The position numbers and the translations under genes are program-made. The notes under the pieces were generated by a model, which did no database searches, was not told the origin of the DNA, and saw only the letters and a program-made list of their open reading frames with translations. This document shows positions 17,277 through 26,085 of a stretch of 61,919 nucleotides of DNA, in pieces. The DNA comes from Gemmatimonadota bacterium. Its GTDB lineage: Bacteria > Gemmatimonadota > Gemmatimonadetes > Gemmatimonadales > GWC2-71-9. Position 1 is the first letter of the stretch. Each line of letters begins with the position of its first letter. The stretch covers positions 1 through 61,919 of the forward strand of contig QHTZ01000070.1 in NCBI GenBank assembly GCA_003221005.1, written 5' to 3'.

Positions 17277-19357
17277 TCAGTCCGTCGCGGCTTCGGCGGC
17301 GGGGGCGGCGTGGGCCTCCTTGAACTTGATCGGCTCGGCCCAGAACCCGGCGCAGAAGTCGCCGAACGCGCGCGCCCGGTCCAAGATCTCGCGCGCGGCC
17401 GCCTCTCCCGGCTCCGCGCGCTTCAGGCGCGCGAACTCCCCTGACAATTCGCTCCACGAGCCGCCGGTCTGTCCGGAGAGCACGAAGATGTTTTCGAACT
17501 CCCACAGCGCCTGCTCCGGTGTGAACGGGTCCACCAGCCGGCGATAGAGCGGGACCCGCGCGGCGGCCGCCGCCGCCTCGTACCCGGCGAAGATCGCGGC
17601 GCCGAACTCCTTGTGCGCGAAGTACGCCTCGGCGCGTGCCCCCAGTCCTGATAGAAGGAGGGGTCCGCTTCGAACGTCGGCACGGAGCGCAGCGGCTCGA
17701 GGGCCTCCTTGAGACGCGCCTCGCCCAAACGCGCCATGCACGCAGTGAAGTCCTCGCCGTCCTGCCGCTCACTCTCGAACAGCCCGAGCAAGGTCTGCAA
17801 CACCCTGACGCAGTTCTTCGCGGGATACTTGCCCATCACTTCGCCGATCTGCGCCCGGTCGAGGCCGATCCGGCCGCCCACGAACAGGAGGTACGAAGGC
17901 ACCGTGCGCTTATCCTCGGTCATGGCCGCGCTGTGAAAGCCGACGTCGGCGACGGCGTGCTGGGCGCAGCCGTTCGGGCATCCGGAAATCTTGATCCTGA
18001 GGGTACGCGCCAGCTCGCGATATTGCGCGAGCTCACCCCCGTCCTCGAGCGCGGCCGAGAGCGCCGAGCCGAGGCCCTTCGCCGAAGCGATGCCGAGACG
18101 GCACGTGTCGGCTGCGGGGCAGGTGGTGATGTCCTCGATCGTCTCGGCGCCGGGATCGCCGAGCTCGATGCTGCGGAGGGCGTCGTATAGGTCGGGCAGC
18201 TCGTCCTCGCGCACCCAGGGCAGATAGAAATTCTGGTCGACCGCAATGCGTGCCTCGCCCGCCGAGTAGCGCCGCACGACCTCGGCGAGCTTGCGGAGCG
18301 GATCGCTCAGGATGTCCCCTAACCGCAGCCGGACGTTGACACCCTTCAGTCCCGGGATCTTGTGGGGCACCACGGAGTCGCGGTACCAGCGACGGTATTC
18401 GGGCCGCTCGGTGCGCGGATCGCGCACCGGGAGTCCGGCACGCGGCGGAACCTCGAAGGGCTGGTGAACCTCCTGTACATCCTCGGGCGGGAAGGGGATC
18501 GGACCGACGTGCTGGCGCTCGAGATCGAGCGCTTCGCGAAACCGCGGCCACCCCATGGCCTGCACCAGGAACTTCATGCGCGCCTTCATACGGGACTTGC
18601 GCTCGCCGTAGCGGTCGAATACCCGCAGGATGGCGGCGGCGAAGTTGTACATCTCCTCGACTGGGAGGAAGTCGGTGTACTCGTGCGACAGCATCGGCGC
18701 CCCGCCCATCCCGCCCGCGACCTGGATCTTGAAGCCGCGCCGCTCACGGCCGTCATCGGAACGGACCTGCGCGATGAACCCGATGTCGTGCAGCCGTACG
18801 GCCGAGTGGTCCTCGGTGCAGCCTTCGAAGGTGATCTTGAATTTCCGCCCCAGCACTTGGTTGTGGTCGTTGCGCACGAGATAGCGGAACAGGGCGTGGG
18901 CGTAAGGGGCGACGTCGAACACCTCGGTGGGCGACGTCCCCGAGCGGTAGCAGGCGGTGATGTTGCGGACGGTGTTGCCGCACGCCTCGCGCGTCGTGAT
19001 GCCCGCCGCCGCGAGGAAGCGCATGAGGTTCGGCGCTTCTTCGAGCTTGAGGTAATAGATCTGCACGTCTTCGCGCGTGGTCAGGTGCAGGAATCCCGAG
19101 CCGAAGCGTTCGGCAGCGTCAGCCAAGGTGACGAGCTGGTCGGCTGAGAGGACGCCTCCCGGGATCTTGATGCGCTGCATCTGCACGCCTTCCTGGCGCT
19201 GGGCGTACGTGCCGAACTGCAGCCGCAGCTTCTGCATCTTGACTTCGCCCAGCTCGCCCCGGCGGTACTGCTTGATCTCCTCTTCGTAGAGATCGAGCTC
19301 CGCCGCGATGTGGTCAGGGAGCGGTGCGGTAGGTGCGACGCGATCGATCGCGGTCAT
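17277..19357 (-). CDS. Siroheme sulfite (or nitrite) reductase with a frame break near 17640 separating the C-terminal helical domain
   Basis: HLTTRED, CGNTVRN, RKFK, CPAADTC..SGCPNGC siroheme/[4Fe-4S] cysteines; operon with cysH-cysG; protein-like sequence continues in another frame (ARAEAYFAHKEF...) to 17277. Confidence 0.85.
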
Positions 19358-19370
19358 AGATCCAGTTCCT

Positions 19371-20792
19371 TCAGGCTTCGATGAGCACTTCGGCGTGCGC
19401 AGCGGCGAGCTTCCCCAGCCGCTCCCGCACGGTGACCACTTCCCCTACCACCAAGGTGGCCGGGGACTCGAGGCGCGCCTCGCGCGCCAGGGCCTCGATC
19501 GTGGCGAGCGTGCCGACCACGGCACGCTCCTCGGGGAGCGTGGCGCTCGCGATCACCGCGGCGGGCGTGTCGGGCCTCGCGCCGTGGGCGAGGAGCCGGG
19601 CGGTGATGTGGGACAGCCCCCGCAACCCCATCAGAAACACGAGGGTGGGGATGCGTGCCAGCGCGTTCCAATCGAGGTCCGACTCCCCTTCACATTCGTG
19701 CCCTGCGGCCACGGCAAACGCCGAGGCAAACCGGCGGTGTGTGACCGGGATCCCCACCGCTCCGGGAGCGGCGATAGCCGAGCTGACCCCCGGAATCACC
19801 TCGAATGGAACGCCGGCGGCGTGCAGCGCCTCGCCCTCTTCGGCGCCGCGGCCGAACACGAACGGATCGCCCCCCTTGAGCCGCGCCACCACCCGTCCCT
19901 GACGCGCCAGCGCGATCAGGACGTCGTTCGTCTTCTCCTGGTCGATCGAGTGCCCGTCGGCCCGCTTGCCGACGAAAATCCGCTCGGCCCACGGCGCCGC
20001 CCGCTCCACGAGCGCGGGATGCACGAGGCGGTCGTACACCACGACGTCCGCAGTGCGCAGCACCTCGAGCCCGCGCACGGTGACCAGCCCCGGATCGCCG
20101 GGCCCGGCGCCCACGAGGTACACCATCCCACGCGGCGGCGACTCTGCCACGTCGCCCGACGCCGCGCGCGCCACGAGCTCGTCGATCCGCCGGCGGGCGC
20201 CCGCGACGTCGCCACGGCGCACGTACTCCACCGCGTCCGAGTCCACGATCTCGTACCACAAGCGCGTGCGCACTTTCTGATCGGGGACGCGCGCCGCCAC
20301 GGCGGGCCGCAGCTCGCCCAGCAGATCAAGGAACTCGGCGTCCGCCCGGCCGATCAGCGCCCGGATACGCTCGCGCAACCGCACCGCGAGCGCCGGGCTC
20401 TTCCCGGCGGTGGAGACGGCGACCGCGATGTCTCCCGCCCGGTGGATCGCGGGAGCGATGAAGCTGCAGTGAGGGAGGTCGTCCACGGCATTGAGGAGGA
20501 TGCCGCGCTGCTCCGCTTCCGCCCAGACGTCCGCGTTAGCACTCCGATCGTCGGTCGCCGCGATCGTGAGGAAAGCGCCCTCGAGGTCGCCGCGCTGATA
20601 TGCGCGCCGCCGCACCGCGATCGCCCCGGTCGCTGCCAGATCCTCGAGCTTCCAGGTAAGCTCGGGGCTCACCACCGTCACGCGCGCTCCTGCCTCCAGC
20701 AGCCCTACGACCTTCTGCTCCGCGATAGCGCCGCCGCCCACGACGACGGCGTGCCGCCCCTGGAGGTTCAGGAACACCGGATAGAAGCTCAT
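19371..20792 (-). CDS. cysG: Siroheme synthase (dehydrogenase/ferrochelatase + uroporphyrinogen-III methylase)
   Basis: MSFYPVFL, VVGGG, NAVD, STAGKSP, LVGAGPGD, RLKGGDP, PGVSS; ATGA overlap with the cysH stop. Confidence 0.95.
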   Translation of the reverse strand: MSFYPVFLNLQGRHAVVVGGGAIAEQKVVGLLEAGARVTVVSPELTWKLEDLAATGAIAVRRRAYQRGDLEGAFLTIAATDDRSANADVWAEAEQRGILLNAVDDLPHCSFIAPAIHRAGDIAVAVSTAGKSPALAVRLRERIRALIGRADAEFLDLLGELRPAVAARVPDQKVRTRLWYEIVDSDAVEYVRRGDVAGARRRIDELVARAASGDVAESPPRGMVYLVGAGPGDPGLVTVRGLEVLRTADVVVYDRLVHPALVERAAPWAERIFVGKRADGHSIDQEKTNDVLIALARQGRVVARLKGGDPFVFGRGAEEGEALHAAGVPFEVIPGVSSAIAAPGAVGIPVTHRRFASAFAVAAGHECEGESDLDWNALARIPTLVFLMGLRGLSHITARLLAHGARPDTPAAVIASATLPEERAVVGTLATIEALAREARLESPATLVVGEVVTVRERLGKLAAAHAEVLIEA

Positions 20793-21472
20793 ACCTTCAC
20801 CGTGAAGGTGTGGAGACCGCATTCGGTCTTGCCCATGCCGCTCCAGCGGCCCGCCCGCTCCGGCTCGCCCGGCCGCGTGGCCCGGGTGCACGGCCAGCAT
20901 CCGATGCTCGTGAACCCCTGGTCCAGGAGCGGGTGGTAGGGAATGTCCTGCTCCCGGATGTAGCGCCACACGTCGTCGCGCGACCACCCCGCGAGGGGGA
21001 ACACCTTGACGATGGGGTGCCCGTTCGCCTGGTGGTACTCGAGGATGTCGAGGCCGGCCCGGGTGTCGCCCTGGTCACTGCGCACCGCGCTGATCCAGGC
21101 GTCAAAGCCCCCGAGCGCGCGCTGCAGCGGCTCGACCTTGCGGATCCAGCAGCAGTGGTCGGGATCGGTGCGGTACAAGGGGCCCGGGTCAGTGGCCGGC
21201 CGCAGCTCGACCAGGTTGAGCCCGTATCGCTCGGCGAACTGATCCTTGAACGCTAGGGTCTCGGGGAAGTGGAAGCCGGTCTCGAGGAAGAGCACCGGGA
21301 CCCTGCGGTCGATGCGGCTCAGCATGTGCGCCAGCACGACGCCGCCGCCCCCAAAGCTCACGGTCAGCGCCGCGCGCTCCGGGAACGTGGCGACGGTCCA
21401 GGCCACGATCCTCTCGGGCGTCACGCCGCGCAGTTCCGCCGCTCGCTCCCGCACCGCTGCTGCGTTAAGCAT
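20789..21472 (-). CDS. cysH: APS reductase ([4Fe-4S]-type CysH)
   Basis: ETGFHFPET, CC pair (DHCCWIRK), SIGCWPCT, RAGRW, ECGLH. Confidence 0.93.
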   Translation of the reverse strand: MLNAAAVRERAAELRGVTPERIVAWTVATFPERAALTVSFGGGGVVLAHMLSRIDRRVPVLFLETGFHFPETLAFKDQFAERYGLNLVELRPATDPGPLYRTDPDHCCWIRKVEPLQRALGGFDAWISAVRSDQGDTRAGLDILEYHQANGHPIVKVFPLAGWSRDDVWRYIREQDIPYHPLLDQGFTSIGCWPCTRATRPGEPERAGRWSGMGKTECGLHTFTVKV

Positions 21473-21576
21473 CAGCTAGCTCCATCCTCCCTCATTCCGT
21501 TCGTTTGCGGCCGTTTGTCCGGCCCTTCAGGGCACGGGACGAAGCTGCGGCGACGTCGGGATCTTCCCCCCCCCCC

Positions 21577-21616
21577 AAAAACACGAGCCCGCTTCCGATC
21601 GCGGGAAGCGGGCCCG
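21577..21616 (-). terminator. Intrinsic terminator (attenuator) in the cysH leader
   Basis: CGGGCCCGCTTCC-cgcgatc-GGAAGCGGGCTCG followed by TGTTTTT on the minus strand. Confidence 0.8.
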
Positions 21617-21646
21617 ATGCGCGTTGCACTCGTCAGCTACTCGTCC

Positions 21647-21757
21647 TTACGTCCGATTGCCTCCGGACAGTGCGCCGCCACCGTGTCCGCTCCCCAGGGA
21701 GCGAGCACACATACAGCAGGCCTTACAACACACGGTTGTGGCGCAGGTACGAGGCAT
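21647..21757 (-). CDS. Cysteine-rich leader peptide (MPRTCATTVCCKACCMCARSLGSGHGGGALSGGNRT)
   Basis: 6 Cys codons within codons 5-17; lies between the promoter and the terminator upstream of cysH. Confidence 0.8.
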   Translation of the reverse strand: MPRTCATTVCCKACCMCARSLGSGHGGGALSGGNRT

Positions 21758-21786
21758 TGATCCGGTTCTAAAGTGGCTGAGGGGGA

Positions 21787-21815
21787 ACGCTATCACGGAA
21801 GGGGGATGGTGTCAA
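21787..21815 (-). promoter_or_regulatory. sigma70-type promoter of the cys leader/operon
   Basis: TTGACA-17bp-TAGCGT with extended TG. Confidence 0.7.
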
Positions 21816-21874
21816 CGTTGCTGGCTCGCGGCCATCGTGATGTAGCGCACACAAGGGTCGCGGGCGGGGCGTGC

Positions 21875-21903
21875 TTGACAGCCCTGCGGGGGCTTCGTAA
21901 GGT
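21875..21903 (+). promoter_or_regulatory. sigma70-type promoter of the lys/dap operon
   Basis: TTGACA-17bp-TAAGGT. Confidence 0.7.
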
Positions 21904-21913
21904 GGGGGACCAT

Positions 21914-22003
21914 ATGCAACCGCTCCGTCGCTTCTCCCCGCTTACCCGTCCCGGCAGCCGCCAGCTGATGGCCCGCCGAAAGCGGGTGTGTGCCCTCCGT
22001 TAG
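21914..22003 (+). CDS. Putative near-leaderless uORF of the dap operon (MQPLRRFSPLTRPGSRQLMARRKRVCALR)
   Basis: ATG 10 nt after the -10 box; followed by a pyrimidine-rich tract and a hairpin at 22052-22073. Confidence 0.4.
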   Translation: MQPLRRFSPLTRPGSRQLMARRKRVCALR

Positions 22004-22094
22004 CCGGTTCTTTCGCTCCTAGTCGTAGTTTTCAGAAGCCTAGAGTAGAGTGCGGGTGCGCCATGGCACCCGCCGCCGGGATTCGAGGTCTCAC

Positions 22095-24440
22095 GTGACG
22101 GGACGTCCCACATCTGGAGAGCCGACACCGTCCACGGTGCTCAAGTTCGGGGGCACCTCGGTCGAGGATGCCGCCGCCTTCGAGCGGCACCGCGACGTAG
22201 CTCGCCGCCTGCTCGACGCGGCGGCGGCCGCGCGGTTCGACAGCGAGCTCGCCCGTGCCCGCGAGGAGCTCGACCGCCTGCTCGAGCGCGTGTCGCGCGA
22301 GCGGGCCGCTCTCCCCGCGCTCCGGGATGAGATGGCCTCCTACGGGGAGCGCATCTCGGCGTCGCTGCTCGCGGGCGTGCTCGCCGCCCGCGACCTGCCG
22401 GCGGTCTGCGTCGATGCGCGCTGCTGCATCGTGACGAACGAACTGGCGGGGCGTGCGGACCCTGACATCCCGGAGACGGAGCGCCGCACCCGCGCCGAGC
22501 TCGGGCCGCTGCTCGCGGACCGGCGCATCCCGGTGCTCGGCGGCTTCATCGCCGCGTCGCGGAACGGTGTGACGACCACGCTCGGGCGCGGTGGCTCGGA
22601 CTACACGGCGGCGCTCGTCGGCGCGGCGCTCGACGCCGAGGAGATCCAGATCTGGACCGACGTGTCGGGTGTGATGACCGCCGACCCGCGCGTGGTCCCG
22701 AATGCCCGCACCATCCCCACCCTGTCGTACGCCGAAGCCTCGGAGCTTGCGTACTTCGGCGCCAAGGTGCTGCACCCCAAGAGCATCCAGCCAGCGCTGG
22801 CACGCGGGATCCCGGTGCGGATCGTGAATTCGCGCGCGCCGCGGGACGCCGGCACCGTTGTGGCGGCCGAGGCCGAGCTGTGGCCGGGGACGGTCAAGTC
22901 GATCGCGCACAAGACCGGCATCACGGTCCTCCAGATCACGTCGGCGCGCATGCTCGGCGCCTACGGGTTCCTGCGCGCCCTGTTCGAGGTGTTCGACCGC
23001 CACAAGATGCCGGTGGACGTGGTGACCACCTCCGAGGTGAGCCTGTCGCTCACGGTGGAGGACGGCGCCGGGCTCCCCGCGGTCGTGAACGAGCTCGAGA
23101 CGCTGGGCGAGGTCCGGGTGGAGCCGCGCCGCGCGATCATCTGTGTGGTGGGCGAGGGCCTGCGCACCACGCCCGGCATCGCGGCGCGCGTGTTCGAGAC
23201 GATTCGCGACATCAACGTCTCGCTCATCTCCCAGGGAGCGTCGCGGGTGAACCTCACGTTCATCGTGGACGACGGCCAGGCGCGGGAAACGGTGACGCGC
23301 CTGCATGCCGCGTTGCTCGAGGGGGTTGCAGTCGGGCGGTCAGACCGTCGGGCAGCCGGACGGGGAAGGCGTAAGCGGTCCGACCGTCCGACGGTCCGAC
23401 CGTCCGACCGTTGGACCGCCGTCGAGCTGGCGCGCCGCCTCATCGACATCCCCTCGATCTCTGGCGAAGAGGAGGCGGTCGCCCGATTCCTGAAAGGGCA
23501 TTTGGAGCGGCTGGGCTACAGAGTCGAGCTGCTTGAGTCAGCGCCGGGGCGCCCCGGCCTGTTCGCCACGACCGGCGCTGCGCCGCGCATCGTCTTCTGC
23601 ACCCACCTCGACACCGTGCCACCGTTCTTCGCGTCGTCCGAGGACGACGAATTCGTGTACGGGCGCGGTGCCTGCGACACGAAGGGGATCCTCGCCGCGC
23701 AGCTCGCCGCGGCGGAGCGGCTGCGCGCCGCGGGGATCACCGAGCTGGGGCTGCTGTTCGTGGTGGACGAAGAAAAAGGAAGCATCGGCGCGCGTGCGGC
23801 GAACGGTCACCCCGACGCGCGCGACTGCCGCTGGCTGATCGTCGGCGAGCCGACGGAAAACAAGCTCGCGATCGGCTCCAAGGGCTCGCTGCGGTTGGCG
23901 CTCCGGGCGGAGGGCACCGGCGGACATTCGGCGTATCCCGAGCGGGGCCGGTCCGCGATCCACACCCTGCTCGACGTGCTCGGCGACGTGCGGGCGGTCG
24001 CGTGGCCCACGGACGCCTACTTCGGCGAGACGACGTGCAACGTCGGCATCATCAGCGGTGGCGTGGGCGCGAACGTAATCGCCCCCGACGCCCGCGCTGA
24101 GCTGCACGTTCGCCTCGTCACCGATGCGGCGCCGGTGCGCGAGCTGCTCGAGCGCGCCGTGGCCGGCCGCGCGAAGATTGAATACTTGAGCGCCACGCCC
24201 CCTGTGCGCCTCGCCGCGGTGCCGGGGTTCGAGCAGTGCGTGGTCGGCTTCACCACCGACGTGCCGCACCTCTCGAACTGGGGCACACCGCTGCTGCTCG
24301 GCCCCGGCTCGATCCACGATGCCCACACCGCGGGGGAGCGGATCGCCAAGGCCGAGCTCGAGCGCGGGGTGGAGCTGTACGAGCGGCTGGCTCGCCGCTT
24401 GTACGCGGAGCCGTCGACCGCCGTGCGGACAGCACCGTGA
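22095..24440 (+). CDS. lysC: Aspartate kinase (ACT domains) fused to an M20 deacylase (DapE/ArgE-like); kinase has an apparent internal deletion
   Basis: KFGGTSV, GERIS, TTLGRGGSD, WTDV, GAKVLHP, two ACT domains; then THLDTVP, GRGACDTKG, DEE, GEPT, GHS, AHT M20 motifs; GAGG RBS before GTG 22095. Confidence 0.85.
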   Translation: MTGRPTSGEPTPSTVLKFGGTSVEDAAAFERHRDVARRLLDAAAAARFDSELARAREELDRLLERVSRERAALPALRDEMASYGERISASLLAGVLAARDLPAVCVDARCCIVTNELAGRADPDIPETERRTRAELGPLLADRRIPVLGGFIAASRNGVTTTLGRGGSDYTAALVGAALDAEEIQIWTDVSGVMTADPRVVPNARTIPTLSYAEASELAYFGAKVLHPKSIQPALARGIPVRIVNSRAPRDAGTVVAAEAELWPGTVKSIAHKTGITVLQITSARMLGAYGFLRALFEVFDRHKMPVDVVTTSEVSLSLTVEDGAGLPAVVNELETLGEVRVEPRRAIICVVGEGLRTTPGIAARVFETIRDINVSLISQGASRVNLTFIVDDGQARETVTRLHAALLEGVAVGRSDRRAAGRGRRKRSDRPTVRPSDRWTAVELARRLIDIPSISGEEEAVARFLKGHLERLGYRVELLESAPGRPGLFATTGAAPRIVFCTHLDTVPPFFASSEDDEFVYGRGACDTKGILAAQLAAAERLRAAGITELGLLFVVDEEKGSIGARAANGHPDARDCRWLIVGEPTENKLAIGSKGSLRLALRAEGTGGHSAYPERGRSAIHTLLDVLGDVRAVAWPTDAYFGETTCNVGIISGGVGANVIAPDARAELHVRLVTDAAPVRELLERAVAGRAKIEYLSATPPVRLAAVPGFEQCVVGFTTDVPHLSNWGTPLLLGPGSIHDAHTAGERIAKAELERGVELYERLARRLYAEPSTAVRTAP
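23328..23411. repeat. Palindromic array of 8-bp units (RCGGTCGG-like / CCGACCGT) in frame in the LysC-M20 linker
   Basis: Left arm gcagtcgg gcggtcag accgtcgg gcagccgg; right arm ccgaccgt ccgacggt ccgaccgt ccgaccgt. Confidence 0.75.
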
Positions 24441-25165
24441 AGCTCGCGTTCTTCGGGAACGGGCGCATGGGGCGCGCCGTCGTCGAGCGGGCCCGCGACG
24501 CCGGTCACGACGTCGGCGTCGTGGTGACATCGCGGGACGCGAAGGCCAGCGGGGACGAGCTCGCGGCGAAGCTGCGGGGCCACGACGCTGCGATCGACTT
24601 CTCCGTCGCCGCTGCCGTGCTGACGCACGTGGCGGCGTGCGCGCGGGCGGGGGTGCCGCTCGTGGAGGGCACGACGGGTTGGCAGGGGCAGGAAGCAGAG
24701 GCGCGGCGCCTGGTCGAGGAACGGGGGGGCGCCATGGTGTACGGGGCAAACTTCTCTTTAGGTGTGAACCTGTTTTATCGGCTGGTGGACCGCGCCGGGC
24801 AGCTGTACCGCGGCCTGCCAGCGTACGAGGCGTATATAGAAGAGGCGCACCACGCCAAGAAGCGCGACGCCCCGTCGGGCACGGCCCTCGAGCTGCGCCG
24901 GCTGCTGGCGCAACGGCTCGGCCGTGAGGTGCCGGTGGCCAGCACGCGCGCAGGCCATATTCCGGGCGTGCACCGGGTGGGCTTCGACTCCGCGGCGGAC
25001 GAGATCCTCTTGATTCACACCGCCCGCTCGCGCGACGGTTTCGCGGCGGGGGCGCTCGCCGCCGCCCGCTGGCTCGCCAGCCCCGGGAGTGGGAAACGCG
25101 GCGTGCACGCCTTCGGCGACGTGCTGGATGATATCCTGGAGATGGAAAGGACGGGCAAGCCATGA
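24437..25165 (+). CDS. dapB: 4-hydroxy-tetrahydrodipicolinate reductase
   Basis: GNGRMG, IDFS, GTTG, ANFSLG, EAHHAKKRDAPSGTA; GTGA overlap with the upstream stop. Confidence 0.95.
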   Translation: MKLAFFGNGRMGRAVVERARDAGHDVGVVVTSRDAKASGDELAAKLRGHDAAIDFSVAAAVLTHVAACARAGVPLVEGTTGWQGQEAEARRLVEERGGAMVYGANFSLGVNLFYRLVDRAGQLYRGLPAYEAYIEEAHHAKKRDAPSGTALELRRLLAQRLGREVPVASTRAGHIPGVHRVGFDSAADEILLIHTARSRDGFAAGALAAARWLASPGSGKRGVHAFGDVLDDILEMERTGKP

Positions 25166-26085
25166 CCATGCGCACAGACTGGCTCCGGGGGTGCGGGACG
25201 GCGCTCGTCACGCCGTTCGCGGCGGACGGGAGGGTGGACGAGGCGCGCATGCGCGCGCTGGTGGAGCGACAGCTCGCCGGAGGAGTGAAGCTGCTCGTCC
25301 CCTGCGGCACGACCGGCGAAGCGATGACGATGACGCCGGAGGAGCAGACGCGCGTCATGCGGATCGCGGTCGAGACGGCGCGCGGCCGCGCGCGCGTACT
25401 CGCCGGGGTGGGGAGCAATTCGACGGCGGTGACGGTCGAGCGGGCGCGGGCCGCGCGGGCGGCTGGCGTGGACGGCGTGCTGGTGGTCGCGCCGTATTAC
25501 AACAAACCGACCCAGGCGGGGCTCATCGCGCACTTCAAGGCTGTGGCGGATGGAGTGGCGGGGCTGCCCGTCGTGCTCTATAACGTCCCCGGCCGCACGT
25601 CCTCCAACATCCAGGCGCCGACGGTCCTGACGCTGGCGCGCGAGGTAGAGACGATCGCCGGTATCAAGGAGGCCTCGAACGACCTCACCCAGATCATGGC
25701 GATTCTGCGCGAGCGCCCGCAGGGATTCAGGGTGCTCTCAGGCGACGACGCGGTGACCCTCCCGCTCATCGCGCTCGGTGCGGACGGGATCATCTCGGTG
25801 GTCTCGAACGAGGTGCCCGATTTGATGGCCCGGATGGCCGAGCTCGCGTTGCAGGGAAACTGGACAGCGGCCCGCGAGCTGCACTACAGGCTGCTGCCGC
25901 TCATGGAGGCGAACTTCATCGAGTCCAACCCTGGGCCGGTGAAGGCGGCGATGGCGCTCATGGGGCTGCTCGAGGACCAGCTGCGGCTGCCGCTGGTGCC
26001 GGTGCAGGAGAAGACGCGAGCGCGCCTGCGGGAAGTGCTCCAGGAGCTCGGGGTACTCCAGCGGCCGGCCCATGTCGCTGCGTGA
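25162..26085 (+). CDS. dapA: 4-hydroxy-tetrahydrodipicolinate synthase
   Basis: [34 protein letters not shown]. Confidence 0.97.

Follow-up and report, generated by a model that had tools for sequence, protein, structure and literature searches.

The window analysed here is a stretch of 61,919 nucleotides of DNA, contig C61 of a Gemmatimonadota assembly of 2.79 Mb in 141 contigs (G+C 69%; the genome is labelled G000 below). On its minus strand, as are all features of this locus described here, lies a sulfate assimilation operon whose three genes were assigned with Pfam: cysH, encoding an adenosine phosphosulfate/phosphoadenosine phosphosulfate (APS/PAPS) reductase (20789..21472; PAPS_reduct, E 1.7e-45), a cysG-type sirohaem synthase (19371..20987; the four domains TP_methylase, NAD_binding_7, CysG_dimeriser and Sirohm_synth_M) and a sulfite reductase haemoprotein (17423..19357; NIR_SIR and NIR_SIR_ferr). 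The coordinates given for cysG are those of the longest open reading frame (ORF), and its true start is probably near the end of cysH. The original prediction, made from the letters alone, had named these genes in this order and had placed a cysteine-sensing leader-peptide attenuator ahead of them, at 21577..21815; the Pfam matches confirm the gene order. Judged from sequence comparison, we put the probability at about 0.85 that this leader is a ribosome-mediated transcription attenuator which reads charged tRNA-Cys and gates the cysH-cysG-sulfite reductase operon, with cysH as the first regulated gene.

The leader opens with a putative promoter, whose -35 hexamer TTGACA (21810..21815) and -10 hexamer TAGCGT (21787..21792, of the TANNNT type) are separated by 17 nucleotides (nt), exactly where the prediction had put them. 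A scan for consensus promoters returned 0 sites at the leader because TAGCGT agrees with TATAAT at only 3 of 6 positions, and therefore it is conservation that carries the assignment: TTGACA, the TAGC-T of the -10 hexamer and the leader ATG are invariant in an alignment of seven leaders of the same genus. Among the 17 homologous leaders described below, TTGACA or a one-letter variant with a spacer of 16-18 nt was found by eye in 15, and no clear promoter was seen by eye for the other two, the G096 leader and the G033 cysH leader. The presumed -10 hexamer is followed after 29 nt by an ORF of 36 codons plus TAA (21647..21757; ATG at 21757, TAA at 21649-21647), which translates as MPRTCATTVCCKACCMCARSLGSGHGGGALSGGNRT. 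As had been claimed, six of its codons are Cys codons, namely codons 5, 10, 11, 14, 15 and 17 (21745-21743, 21730-21725, 21718-21713 and 21709-21707).

Cysteine thus takes 6 of 36 codons in the leader, compared with 1.0% in the open frames of at least 400 codons in this genome. TGY makes up 2.55% of the non-stop triplets over all frames of the genome, which gives a binomial P of 2.8e-4 for six Cys in 36 codons, and a density of six Cys within 14 codons is reached by 5 of the 18,075 ORFs of 15-70 codons. The other four ORFs of this density were set aside, since all overlap stop-free frames of at least 120 codons. Equally Cys-rich ORFs do occur elsewhere in the genome, and so rarity alone is not decisive and conservation has to decide. 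The codon TGT accounts for 59 of the 85 Cys codons over the homologous leaders, and for four of the six in this one, against 23% of the Cys codons in the long open frames of this genome; this bias toward the rarer codon fits a stalling device, with the reservation that sequences of kin are not independent.

Three short segments are read directly from the leader: segment 1, CGCTCCC (21703-21697), segment 2, GGGAGCGG (21694-21687), and segment 3, CCGCTTCC (21611-21604). Segments 1 and 2 form a hairpin in minimum free energy (MFE) folds (21683..21708, core TCGCTCC / GGAGCGG), the candidate anti-antiterminator, which begins within the last Cys codon. In constrained folds and in the centroid, segment 2 (21695-21687) pairs with segment 3 (21611-21603) to form the predicted antiterminator (21603..21695), and this helix stacks on a long-range helix, the middle helix (about 21682-21670 with 21630-21616), between whose strands lies the leader stop codon. 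Segment 3 with segment 4 makes up a predicted intrinsic terminator hairpin of 13 pairs, 10 of them G-C (21584..21616; -23.2 kcal/mol), followed by the T-rich tail TGTTTTT (21577..21583); the terminator scan made two nested calls, compared with a mean of 0.6 in shuffled sequence. The 13-bp stem with its U-tract and the 1:2, 2:3 and 3:4 pairings are all found where they had been claimed. In the folds the antiterminator pairing uses the 5' arm of the terminator, and the two structures are mutually exclusive. From the T tract to the start of cysH there are 105 nt, and from the end of the leader ORF there are 175 nt.

All six other genomes of the genus have cysH, at 72-80% identity, and a Cys-rich small ORF stands 5' of cysH in seven of seven genomes. 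The leader peptides begin MPRTCATTVCCKACCMCARS... in G000, MVHSCTTIRCLACCCSACCGRS... in G002, MTGRRATICYKACRCTGCARS... in G005, MTRRRTTICCKACRCTGCARS... in G006, MFARCTAMCCCCPPGRAKCRCS... in G003, MRVSCVSVSRCCCTCGCARS... in G004 and MRLCCNAIGCCCPSQGS... in G001. In their alignment the stretch of Cys codons is poorly aligned, and from CGCTCC to the terminator the sequences are nearly identical. A covariance model built from these seven leaders (R1) was used to search the genome itself and 151 genomes of the family. In its own genome R1 found this locus (E 4e-32) together with its antisense image; the six other matches all had E > 0.2, and the two that were inspected sit inside long coding frames. 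Strong matches (E < 1e-6) came from six genomes of three other genera, two of them with two copies, and the leader ORFs there are all Cys-rich as well, for example MMTHRACRRCCPCCRTIDARSPGSG..., MHHTTTSCCRCWMCARSPGSG... and MVTCPSTTCCPCCRRMCALPWGSG... Five of these matches lie 5' of cysC-cysH (APS kinase, then PAPS reductase) and three 5' of sulfite reductase, with both kinds present in two of the six genomes; on the one contig read far enough past sulfite reductase, that of G118, the sirohaem synthase gene cysG comes next. Matches in the family with E > 1e-5 were rejected as Cys leaders; they proved to be leaders of gltB or trp genes, or else different hairpins.

A second model (R2), built from 16 leaders, was run on 151 genomes spread over the phylum. 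It matched in 5 of 71 genomes of family f1 and in 3 of 31 genomes of family f2, and gave no match in 48 genomes of ten other families. Two of the f2 matches (L112 and L113) were discarded, since they look like ordinary terminators close to the ends of genes and lack a leader ORF with doubled Cys. The f2 genome G033, whose assembly in 3 contigs looks like that of an isolate, holds two true copies, one 5' of a cysH homologue and one 5' of sulfite reductase; the leader peptide of the latter begins MTSVHLRRTMPCCCMCPRT..., and of its codons 12-16 four are Cys codons. Four to seven Cys codons stand ahead of segment 2 in every one of the 16 tabulated leaders. The prediction had looked to orthologous leaders for a conserved Cys-rich upstream ORF, and it is found both within the genus and in the other genera. 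This brings the total to 17 leaders, from two families of one order; all stand 5' of sulfate assimilation genes, in three operon arrangements.

This distribution decides against chance, the least probable of the explanations considered and one which we regard as close to negligible, in which a Cys-rich ORF happens to stand beside an ordinary terminator-like hairpin in a GC-rich intergenic region. The handful of equally Cys-rich small ORFs in the genome lend it something, as does the fact that GGGCCCGC...GCGGGCCC hairpins are common terminators in the lineage, to judge from weak matches of the model; neither would account for 17 leaders conserved over two families and always placed 5' of sulfate assimilation genes.

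Conservation of structure was counted on a MAFFT alignment of 16 leaders, the alignment guided by the covariance model being too ragged in the middle domain, and compared with slid controls in which the pairing partners were shifted by 1-3 columns. The consensus fold of the genus consists of the 1:2 hairpin, a middle domain closed by the long-range helix, and the terminator. In this OFF state 85.7% of cells are paired, compared with 39-53% in the slid controls, and ten pairs are changed on both sides. In the ON state, with 2:3 on the same middle helix, 86.3% are paired, compared with 33-51%, and seven pairs are changed on both sides; one column pair of the 2:3 helix is G-U in nine leaders, G-C in four and A-U in three. 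The terminator helix is best supported, with 96.8% paired and four pairs changed on both sides. A T-rich tail (at least five T in the 8 nt after the stem) follows the hairpin in 14 of the 17 leaders, and in a fifteenth (G003) by direct reading.

A further question is what the ORF is conserved for. In every one of the 17 leaders the ORF spans segment 1, segment 2 and the 5' strand of the middle helix, and its stop codon lies inside the antiterminator loop, 19-39 nt ahead of the terminator (median 31, and 31 nt here). Within the genus the tail of the peptide, RSPGSGH..GALSGG.RT, looks conserved. A conserved peptide tail (RS.GSGH..GALSGG) was nonetheless rejected, since in three of the 17 leaders these nucleotides, including the GCGG of segment 2, fall in another reading frame and give unrelated peptides: WEADRMAM... 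in the G049 sulfite reductase leader, SSGADTAM... in the G033 cysH leader and WERRQLRS... in the G033 sulfite reductase leader. The frame differs while the nucleotides are kept, and therefore the tail seems to be conserved as RNA and not as peptide. This is one reason to think it very improbable that the product of the ORF is itself functional, as a Cys-rich micropeptide that binds metal or is redox-active, with the hairpin as the full or partial terminator of the ORF. Such a peptide would fit an ORF length kept at 32-40 codons and an always Cys-rich composition, and leader peptides with functions in trans do exist, according to the available parts of the peTrpL papers; against this, apart from its Cys residues the N-terminal part shows no conservation, the positions of the Cys residues themselves shift between leaders, and the element keeps its place ahead of sulfur assimilation genes whichever of the three operon arrangements follows.

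The strong conservation of nucleotides from segment 1 to the terminator could also be taken as the mark of a ligand- or protein-binding leader RNA, similar to a riboswitch for a sulfur metabolite, which would control the terminator while the ORF is incidental. In its favour is also a conserved middle domain with the motif (C/G)TAG(C/T)T in 14 of 17 leaders. We consider this just as improbable as the micropeptide, since the middle domain differs strongly among the cysH, cysC-cysH and sulfite reductase types of leader except in its helices, and the invariant columns fall almost all within the switching helices. An Rfam scan in E-value mode of 20500-23000 gave four matches, all far under the gathering scores, and none within 21577-21815. 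A binding RNA would moreover leave unexplained the four to seven in-frame Cys codons of all 17 leaders, and also the second, unrelated Cys-codon leader of the same genome which is described below. The motif itself stands here at 21631-21636, just after the leader stop, and was found by eye in varying frames; it coincides with the stop codon itself in G033, whereas G005, G006 and the G033 sulfite reductase leader lack it. It could serve as a reserve stop in other frames, or have a part in the structure.

Folding was carried out with and without segment 1, as the prediction had suggested, and the outcome agrees with it. The MFE fold of the whole leader (211 nt, 21780-21570) is the 1:2 hairpin plus the terminator; with segment 1 removed, the terminator fold and the antiterminator centroid are isoenergetic (-56.8 and -56.7 kcal/mol). 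For a test of stalling, the transcripts of 16 leaders were cut at the end of segment 3 and pairing was barred as far as 10 nt beyond the last Cys codon of the cluster. With this mask applied, 2:3 forms in 15 of the 16 leaders. The row for G003 is not interpretable, the 5' arm of its terminator having been set wrongly; with the mask at the previous Cys codon, 2:3 forms there too.

Several observations weigh against the attenuator reading or against parts of it. The fold of the whole leader is not unusually stable (z = -1.01). With no mask and the RNA cut after segment 3, 2:3 is already the MFE structure in five of the 16 leaders, this one included, and therefore 1:2 is not thermodynamically dominant once segment 3 exists; if the 1:2 hairpin acts, it would act kinetically. 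Helix 1:2 is also the weakest in the alignment, with 81.3% paired and no pair changed on both sides, so that the covarying stems which the prediction had hoped for are found in the OFF state, the ON state and the terminator and are lacking in 1:2. In the cysC-cysH leaders of G049 and G118 the last clustered Cys codon is 15 nt 5' of segment 1, past the reach of a stalled ribosome. The leaders are close kin, so shuffle statistics overstate the support, and the slid controls are the fairer comparison. Two of the 17 terminators, those of G004 and of the G033 cysH leader, have no T-rich tail. The leader ATG here has only a weak GGA as Shine-Dalgarno sequence, 29 nt after the -10 hexamer, and its translation is a prediction. 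No leader was seen in the 428 nt covered upstream of a cysH-like gene of G012 (42% identical); cysH was matched in only 13 of 41 family genomes, and with so many genomes lacking it, the absence of a leader is by itself uninformative.

Transcript data were available from four metatranscriptome runs of one soil study, in which parts of the window are present as assembled contigs. Contigs free of differences cover 21566-21762 (run X1), 21604-21758 (X3) and 21605-21755 (X4) of the leader. These contigs give no strand, ends or level and may derive from DNA in the libraries, so they are no more than compatible with the attenuator, and their silence on ends and levels was counted against it. The break of the X1 contig falls precisely on a run of 11 G immediately 3' of the T tract (21566-21576, not conserved in relatives), where the next contig starts, and this looks like an assembly break and not like the 3' end of an RNA. 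No contig lies over 21784-22000, a gap which is evidence of nothing.

In the folds, the claim that a stalled ribosome masks segment 1 and so allows read-through has in its favour that the geometry fits here, where the last Cys codon abuts the 1:2 hairpin, and that 15 of 16 masked folds give 2:3; a caveat attaches to the role given to 1:2, which shows no covariation and lies out of reach in two leaders. The 1:2 hairpin is unlikely to be the sole decider of the outcome, because 2:3 is the unmasked MFE structure in five leaders, compensatory changes are missing from 1:2, and the gap is 15 nt in two leaders. Since the ORF continues past segment 2 and its stop lies 19-39 nt ahead of the terminator, occupancy of the 5' strand of the antiterminator by the ribosome probably matters as much as the masking of segment 1. 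This refinement extends the segment-1-masking proposal and does not overturn it.

The sensor of Cys-tRNA acting through a terminator, as originally proposed, is thus supported as a predicted mechanism by the presence and conservation of its sequence elements, by the alternative pairings and by the genes around it, and it would work as follows. Transcription would start about 20 nt ahead of the leader ATG, and a ribosome would translate the 36-codon leader, with six Cys codons in its first 17. When Cys-tRNA is plentiful, the ribosome would proceed over segment 2 and the 5' strand of the antiterminator to the stop codon in the antiterminator loop, so that it sits first on, then between, the antiterminator strands while the terminator is made. 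The ribosome there, and later the re-formed local 1:2 hairpin, would leave segment 3 with segment 4 only, and transcription would end near 21577 at the 13-bp terminator and its U tract. When Cys-tRNA is scarce, the ribosome would stall on the Cys codons at 21745-21707, opening 1:2 and leaving segment 2 free; segment 2 and the adjoining strand would then pair with the newly made segment 3, the terminator would be blocked, and RNA polymerase would enter cysH. In this scheme the 1:2 hairpin would serve chiefly to hold the switch off once the ribosome has passed, or in the absence of a loaded ribosome.

A translational version of cysteine attenuation also has to be weighed, of the mycobacterial kind, in which a ribosome stalled on the Cys codons would melt a duplex covering the ribosome-binding site of the gene that follows, and the hairpin would be no terminator. 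Cys-rich and often leaderless ORFs act in this way in Mycobacterium smegmatis, according to the available part of Canestrari et al. 2020 (bioRxiv 10.1101/834739). Leaderless starts seem common here as well: a -10-like hexamer was found by eye 7-12 nt 5' of the ATG in nine of the 17 leaders (two of the same genus and seven others), and these nine appear from their sequences to be leaderless or nearly so. In G004 and G001 the -10 hexamer ends 7 nt ahead of the ATG, so these leaders are probably leaderless; the leader of the present genome, with its -10 hexamer 29 nt ahead, does not belong to this group. The two hairpins with no T-rich tail would also suit a translational device. Set against this are the T-rich tails of the other 15 hairpins and the position of the conserved structure, which ends 105 nt ahead of the start of cysH and leaves the GGGAGGA before cysH outside every conserved helix, behind a spacer conserved neither in length nor in sequence. 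When 21780-21570 is folded, the partners of the Cys tract in the MFE structure all lie within the leader, and GGGAGGA, some 90 nt past the terminator, lies outside the folded stretch. Translational attenuation is, on this evidence, quite unlikely, even if it is the foremost of the alternatives to the transcription attenuator.

The genome holds a second Cys-codon leader. A scan for small ORFs with doubled Cys codons, followed by a strong hairpin and a T run, returned 11 candidates, one of which is the cysH leader. Another, on contig C8 (14776-14934, minus strand; locus L116:4277-4435), is MTVMCRRACCCRRQPQGWTDATARQWTT, beginning MTVMCRRACCCRRQ..., and is followed by a GGCCCGGC...GCCGGGCC hairpin, TTTTTT and a permease of the TauE/SafE family. 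A homologous leader with CCCCC is present in G002, G005 and G006, the three other genomes of the genus with that permease; there the -10 hexamer ends 7 nt ahead of the ATG, and the leader precedes a long ORF, a putative porin by its C-terminal motif, and then the permease. R1 finds only the cysH leader in this genome, so the C8 leader has no sequence likeness to it, and at the level of sequence it is independent evidence that the lineage senses cysteine via translation of a leader.

The cassette of segments 1 and 2, CGCTCCCCGGGGAGC, which translates as RSPGS, recurs together with the terminator behind a different leader peptide 5' of gltB, and this suggests that sensor codons have been swapped onto one RNA switch. 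Altogether we are led to a broader proposal, which we hold tentatively and find somewhat less probable than its negation: that sulfur assimilation in one order of Gemmatimonadota is run largely by a regulon of Cys-tRNA attenuators and not by a protein regulator. On this proposal the regulon would draw on two or more unrelated families of leaders, one of the cysH / cysC-cysH / sulfite reductase type and the other of the porin-TauE type; the main type would be a modular switch, and a ribosome terminating at the stop codon inside the antiterminator loop would wedge the two antiterminator strands apart, a role for the stop position unlike that in the trp paradigm.

The trp, his, leu, thr, pheA and ilv operons of enterobacteria have the classical leader-peptide transcription attenuators. 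The cysH leader shares with them a short ORF rich in codons for the end product, mutually exclusive 1:2, 2:3 and 3:4 pairings, and a U-tract terminator before the first gene. It differs from them in its amino acid, cysteine, in serving a sulfate reduction operon, in occurring in Gemmatimonadota, in having no Rfam match and in the apparently leaderless or nearly leaderless starts of nine of its 17 homologues. Its ORF has no stop between segments 1 and 2 but continues over segment 2 and the 5' strand of the long antiterminator, as far as a stop inside the antiterminator loop. In the trp operon, the ribosome at the stop codon covers segment 2, and the non-stalled ribosome proposed here would similarly block an antiterminator strand. 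The element is best described as a new RNA family within the well-known class of leader-peptide transcription attenuators, and its phylum and pathway are new to that class.

Closer in their amino acid are the polycysteine ORFs of mycobacteria. In the available part of Canestrari et al. 2020, leaderless poly-Cys ORFs give cysteine-responsive translational attenuation in Mycobacterium smegmatis, and attenuation by an upstream ORF (uORF) for cysteine is stated to be previously undescribed. As far as that text goes, the two systems have in common unannotated Cys-rich leaders 5' of cysteine or sulfur operons, several to a genome as a regulon, with starts that are often leaderless and stalling that is proposed to relieve attenuation. 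The mycobacterial mechanism is described there as translational, the Cys-codon tract pairing with a downstream Shine-Dalgarno sequence with no intrinsic terminator, whereas here the Cys tract lies outside the conserved helices and both terminator and antiterminator are present. The uORFC-8-2 motif 5' of cysS in Rhodobacterales (Brewer et al. 2021, PMC8632094) is, in the portion of the paper at hand, a predicted terminator-based Cys-codon uORF, and like the cysH leader a predicted ribosome-mediated attenuator with in-frame Cys codons and a terminator stem followed by U's; compared by description only, it belongs to a cysteinyl-tRNA synthetase and not to biosynthesis, has two tandem Cys codons inside its first stem and comes from alpha-proteobacteria. 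Seliverstov et al. 2005 (PMC1262725), in the part available, describe candidate Cys leader peptides 5' of cys operons of Mycobacterium and Propionibacterium acnes and of Bifidobacterium longum cbs, which are likewise short ORFs with Cys runs 5' of cysteine synthesis genes found by comparative genomics; in that part they have no conserved terminating hairpin, and Rho is suggested, while the present leaders have a full and conserved terminator and antiterminator. Naville and Gautheret 2010 (PMC2965389) name cysteine in a reference only.

In a literature search that lay outside subscription journals and supplements (Table S2 of Canestrari et al. and the motif files of Brewer et al. may list more), no terminator-based Cys attenuator 5' of sulfate reduction genes was found, and neither was a paper on attenuators or transcription attenuation in Gemmatimonadota. 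Cysteine had long been without a classical attenuator, the mycobacterial case of 2020 acting, in the available part of Canestrari et al., on translation; the one terminator-based Cys prediction found, as far as the accessible text of Brewer et al. 2021 shows, concerns cysS in alpha-proteobacteria, and here the predicted switch is on the sulfate reduction genes themselves, in a phylum of mostly uncultured soil bacteria. Two predicted features of its design deserve attention, the stop codon inside the antiterminator loop and the often leaderless starts, and the 17 natural variants make up a set for the study of both in attenuation. The covariance model can be used to annotate such leaders, and the leader would be a simple marker of cysteine limitation in soil metatranscriptomes.

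Some further loci were noted in passing. Upstream of the cysH leader, the ORFs at 22032-23306 and 23538-25418 (minus strand; 424 and 626 amino acids) have no Pfam match at E 0.01. In other genera of the family, nine leaders (L034, L035, L037, L039, L040, L042, L044, L047 and L054) precede gltB (Pfam GATase_2). The CGCTCC....GGAGCG hairpin is present in seven of them and degenerate in L047 and L054, and all nine have a GGCCCGC...GCGGGCC terminator with a T tract. Their leader peptides contain ...(L/I)NTVRS..GS... in four cases and vary in the others, a Cys run is found in none of the nine, and TATTTTTAT or ATAATAAT stands 5-8 nt ahead of the ATG in seven. To judge from these sequences, the gltB leaders look like the same switch cassette with other sensor codons.

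Leaders with Trp codons and terminators were also seen. L043 and L049, 5' of anthranilate synthase (trpE), contain TGGTGGTGG with putative in-frame Trp codons, and L046, 5' of an enzyme of the PALP family, reads MRRTMSLRTANRWAWWWRPP... (...NRWAWWWRPP..., with WAWWW) and has its -10 hexamer 7 nt ahead of the ATG; by sequence all three are probable trp attenuators in the same family. Among the weaker matches of the model, L036 (G106) has a Cys-rich leader ORF, MNTTMMMCGCCHLSGMMCCAEERAITP, 5' of a RimK-like ATP-grasp protein, and L045 (G135) has another, MMRAPATVGYHMCCCRMCGACIHPGGR, 5' of a protein with a weak Big_2 match only. These two may be further Cys attenuators with other cargo.

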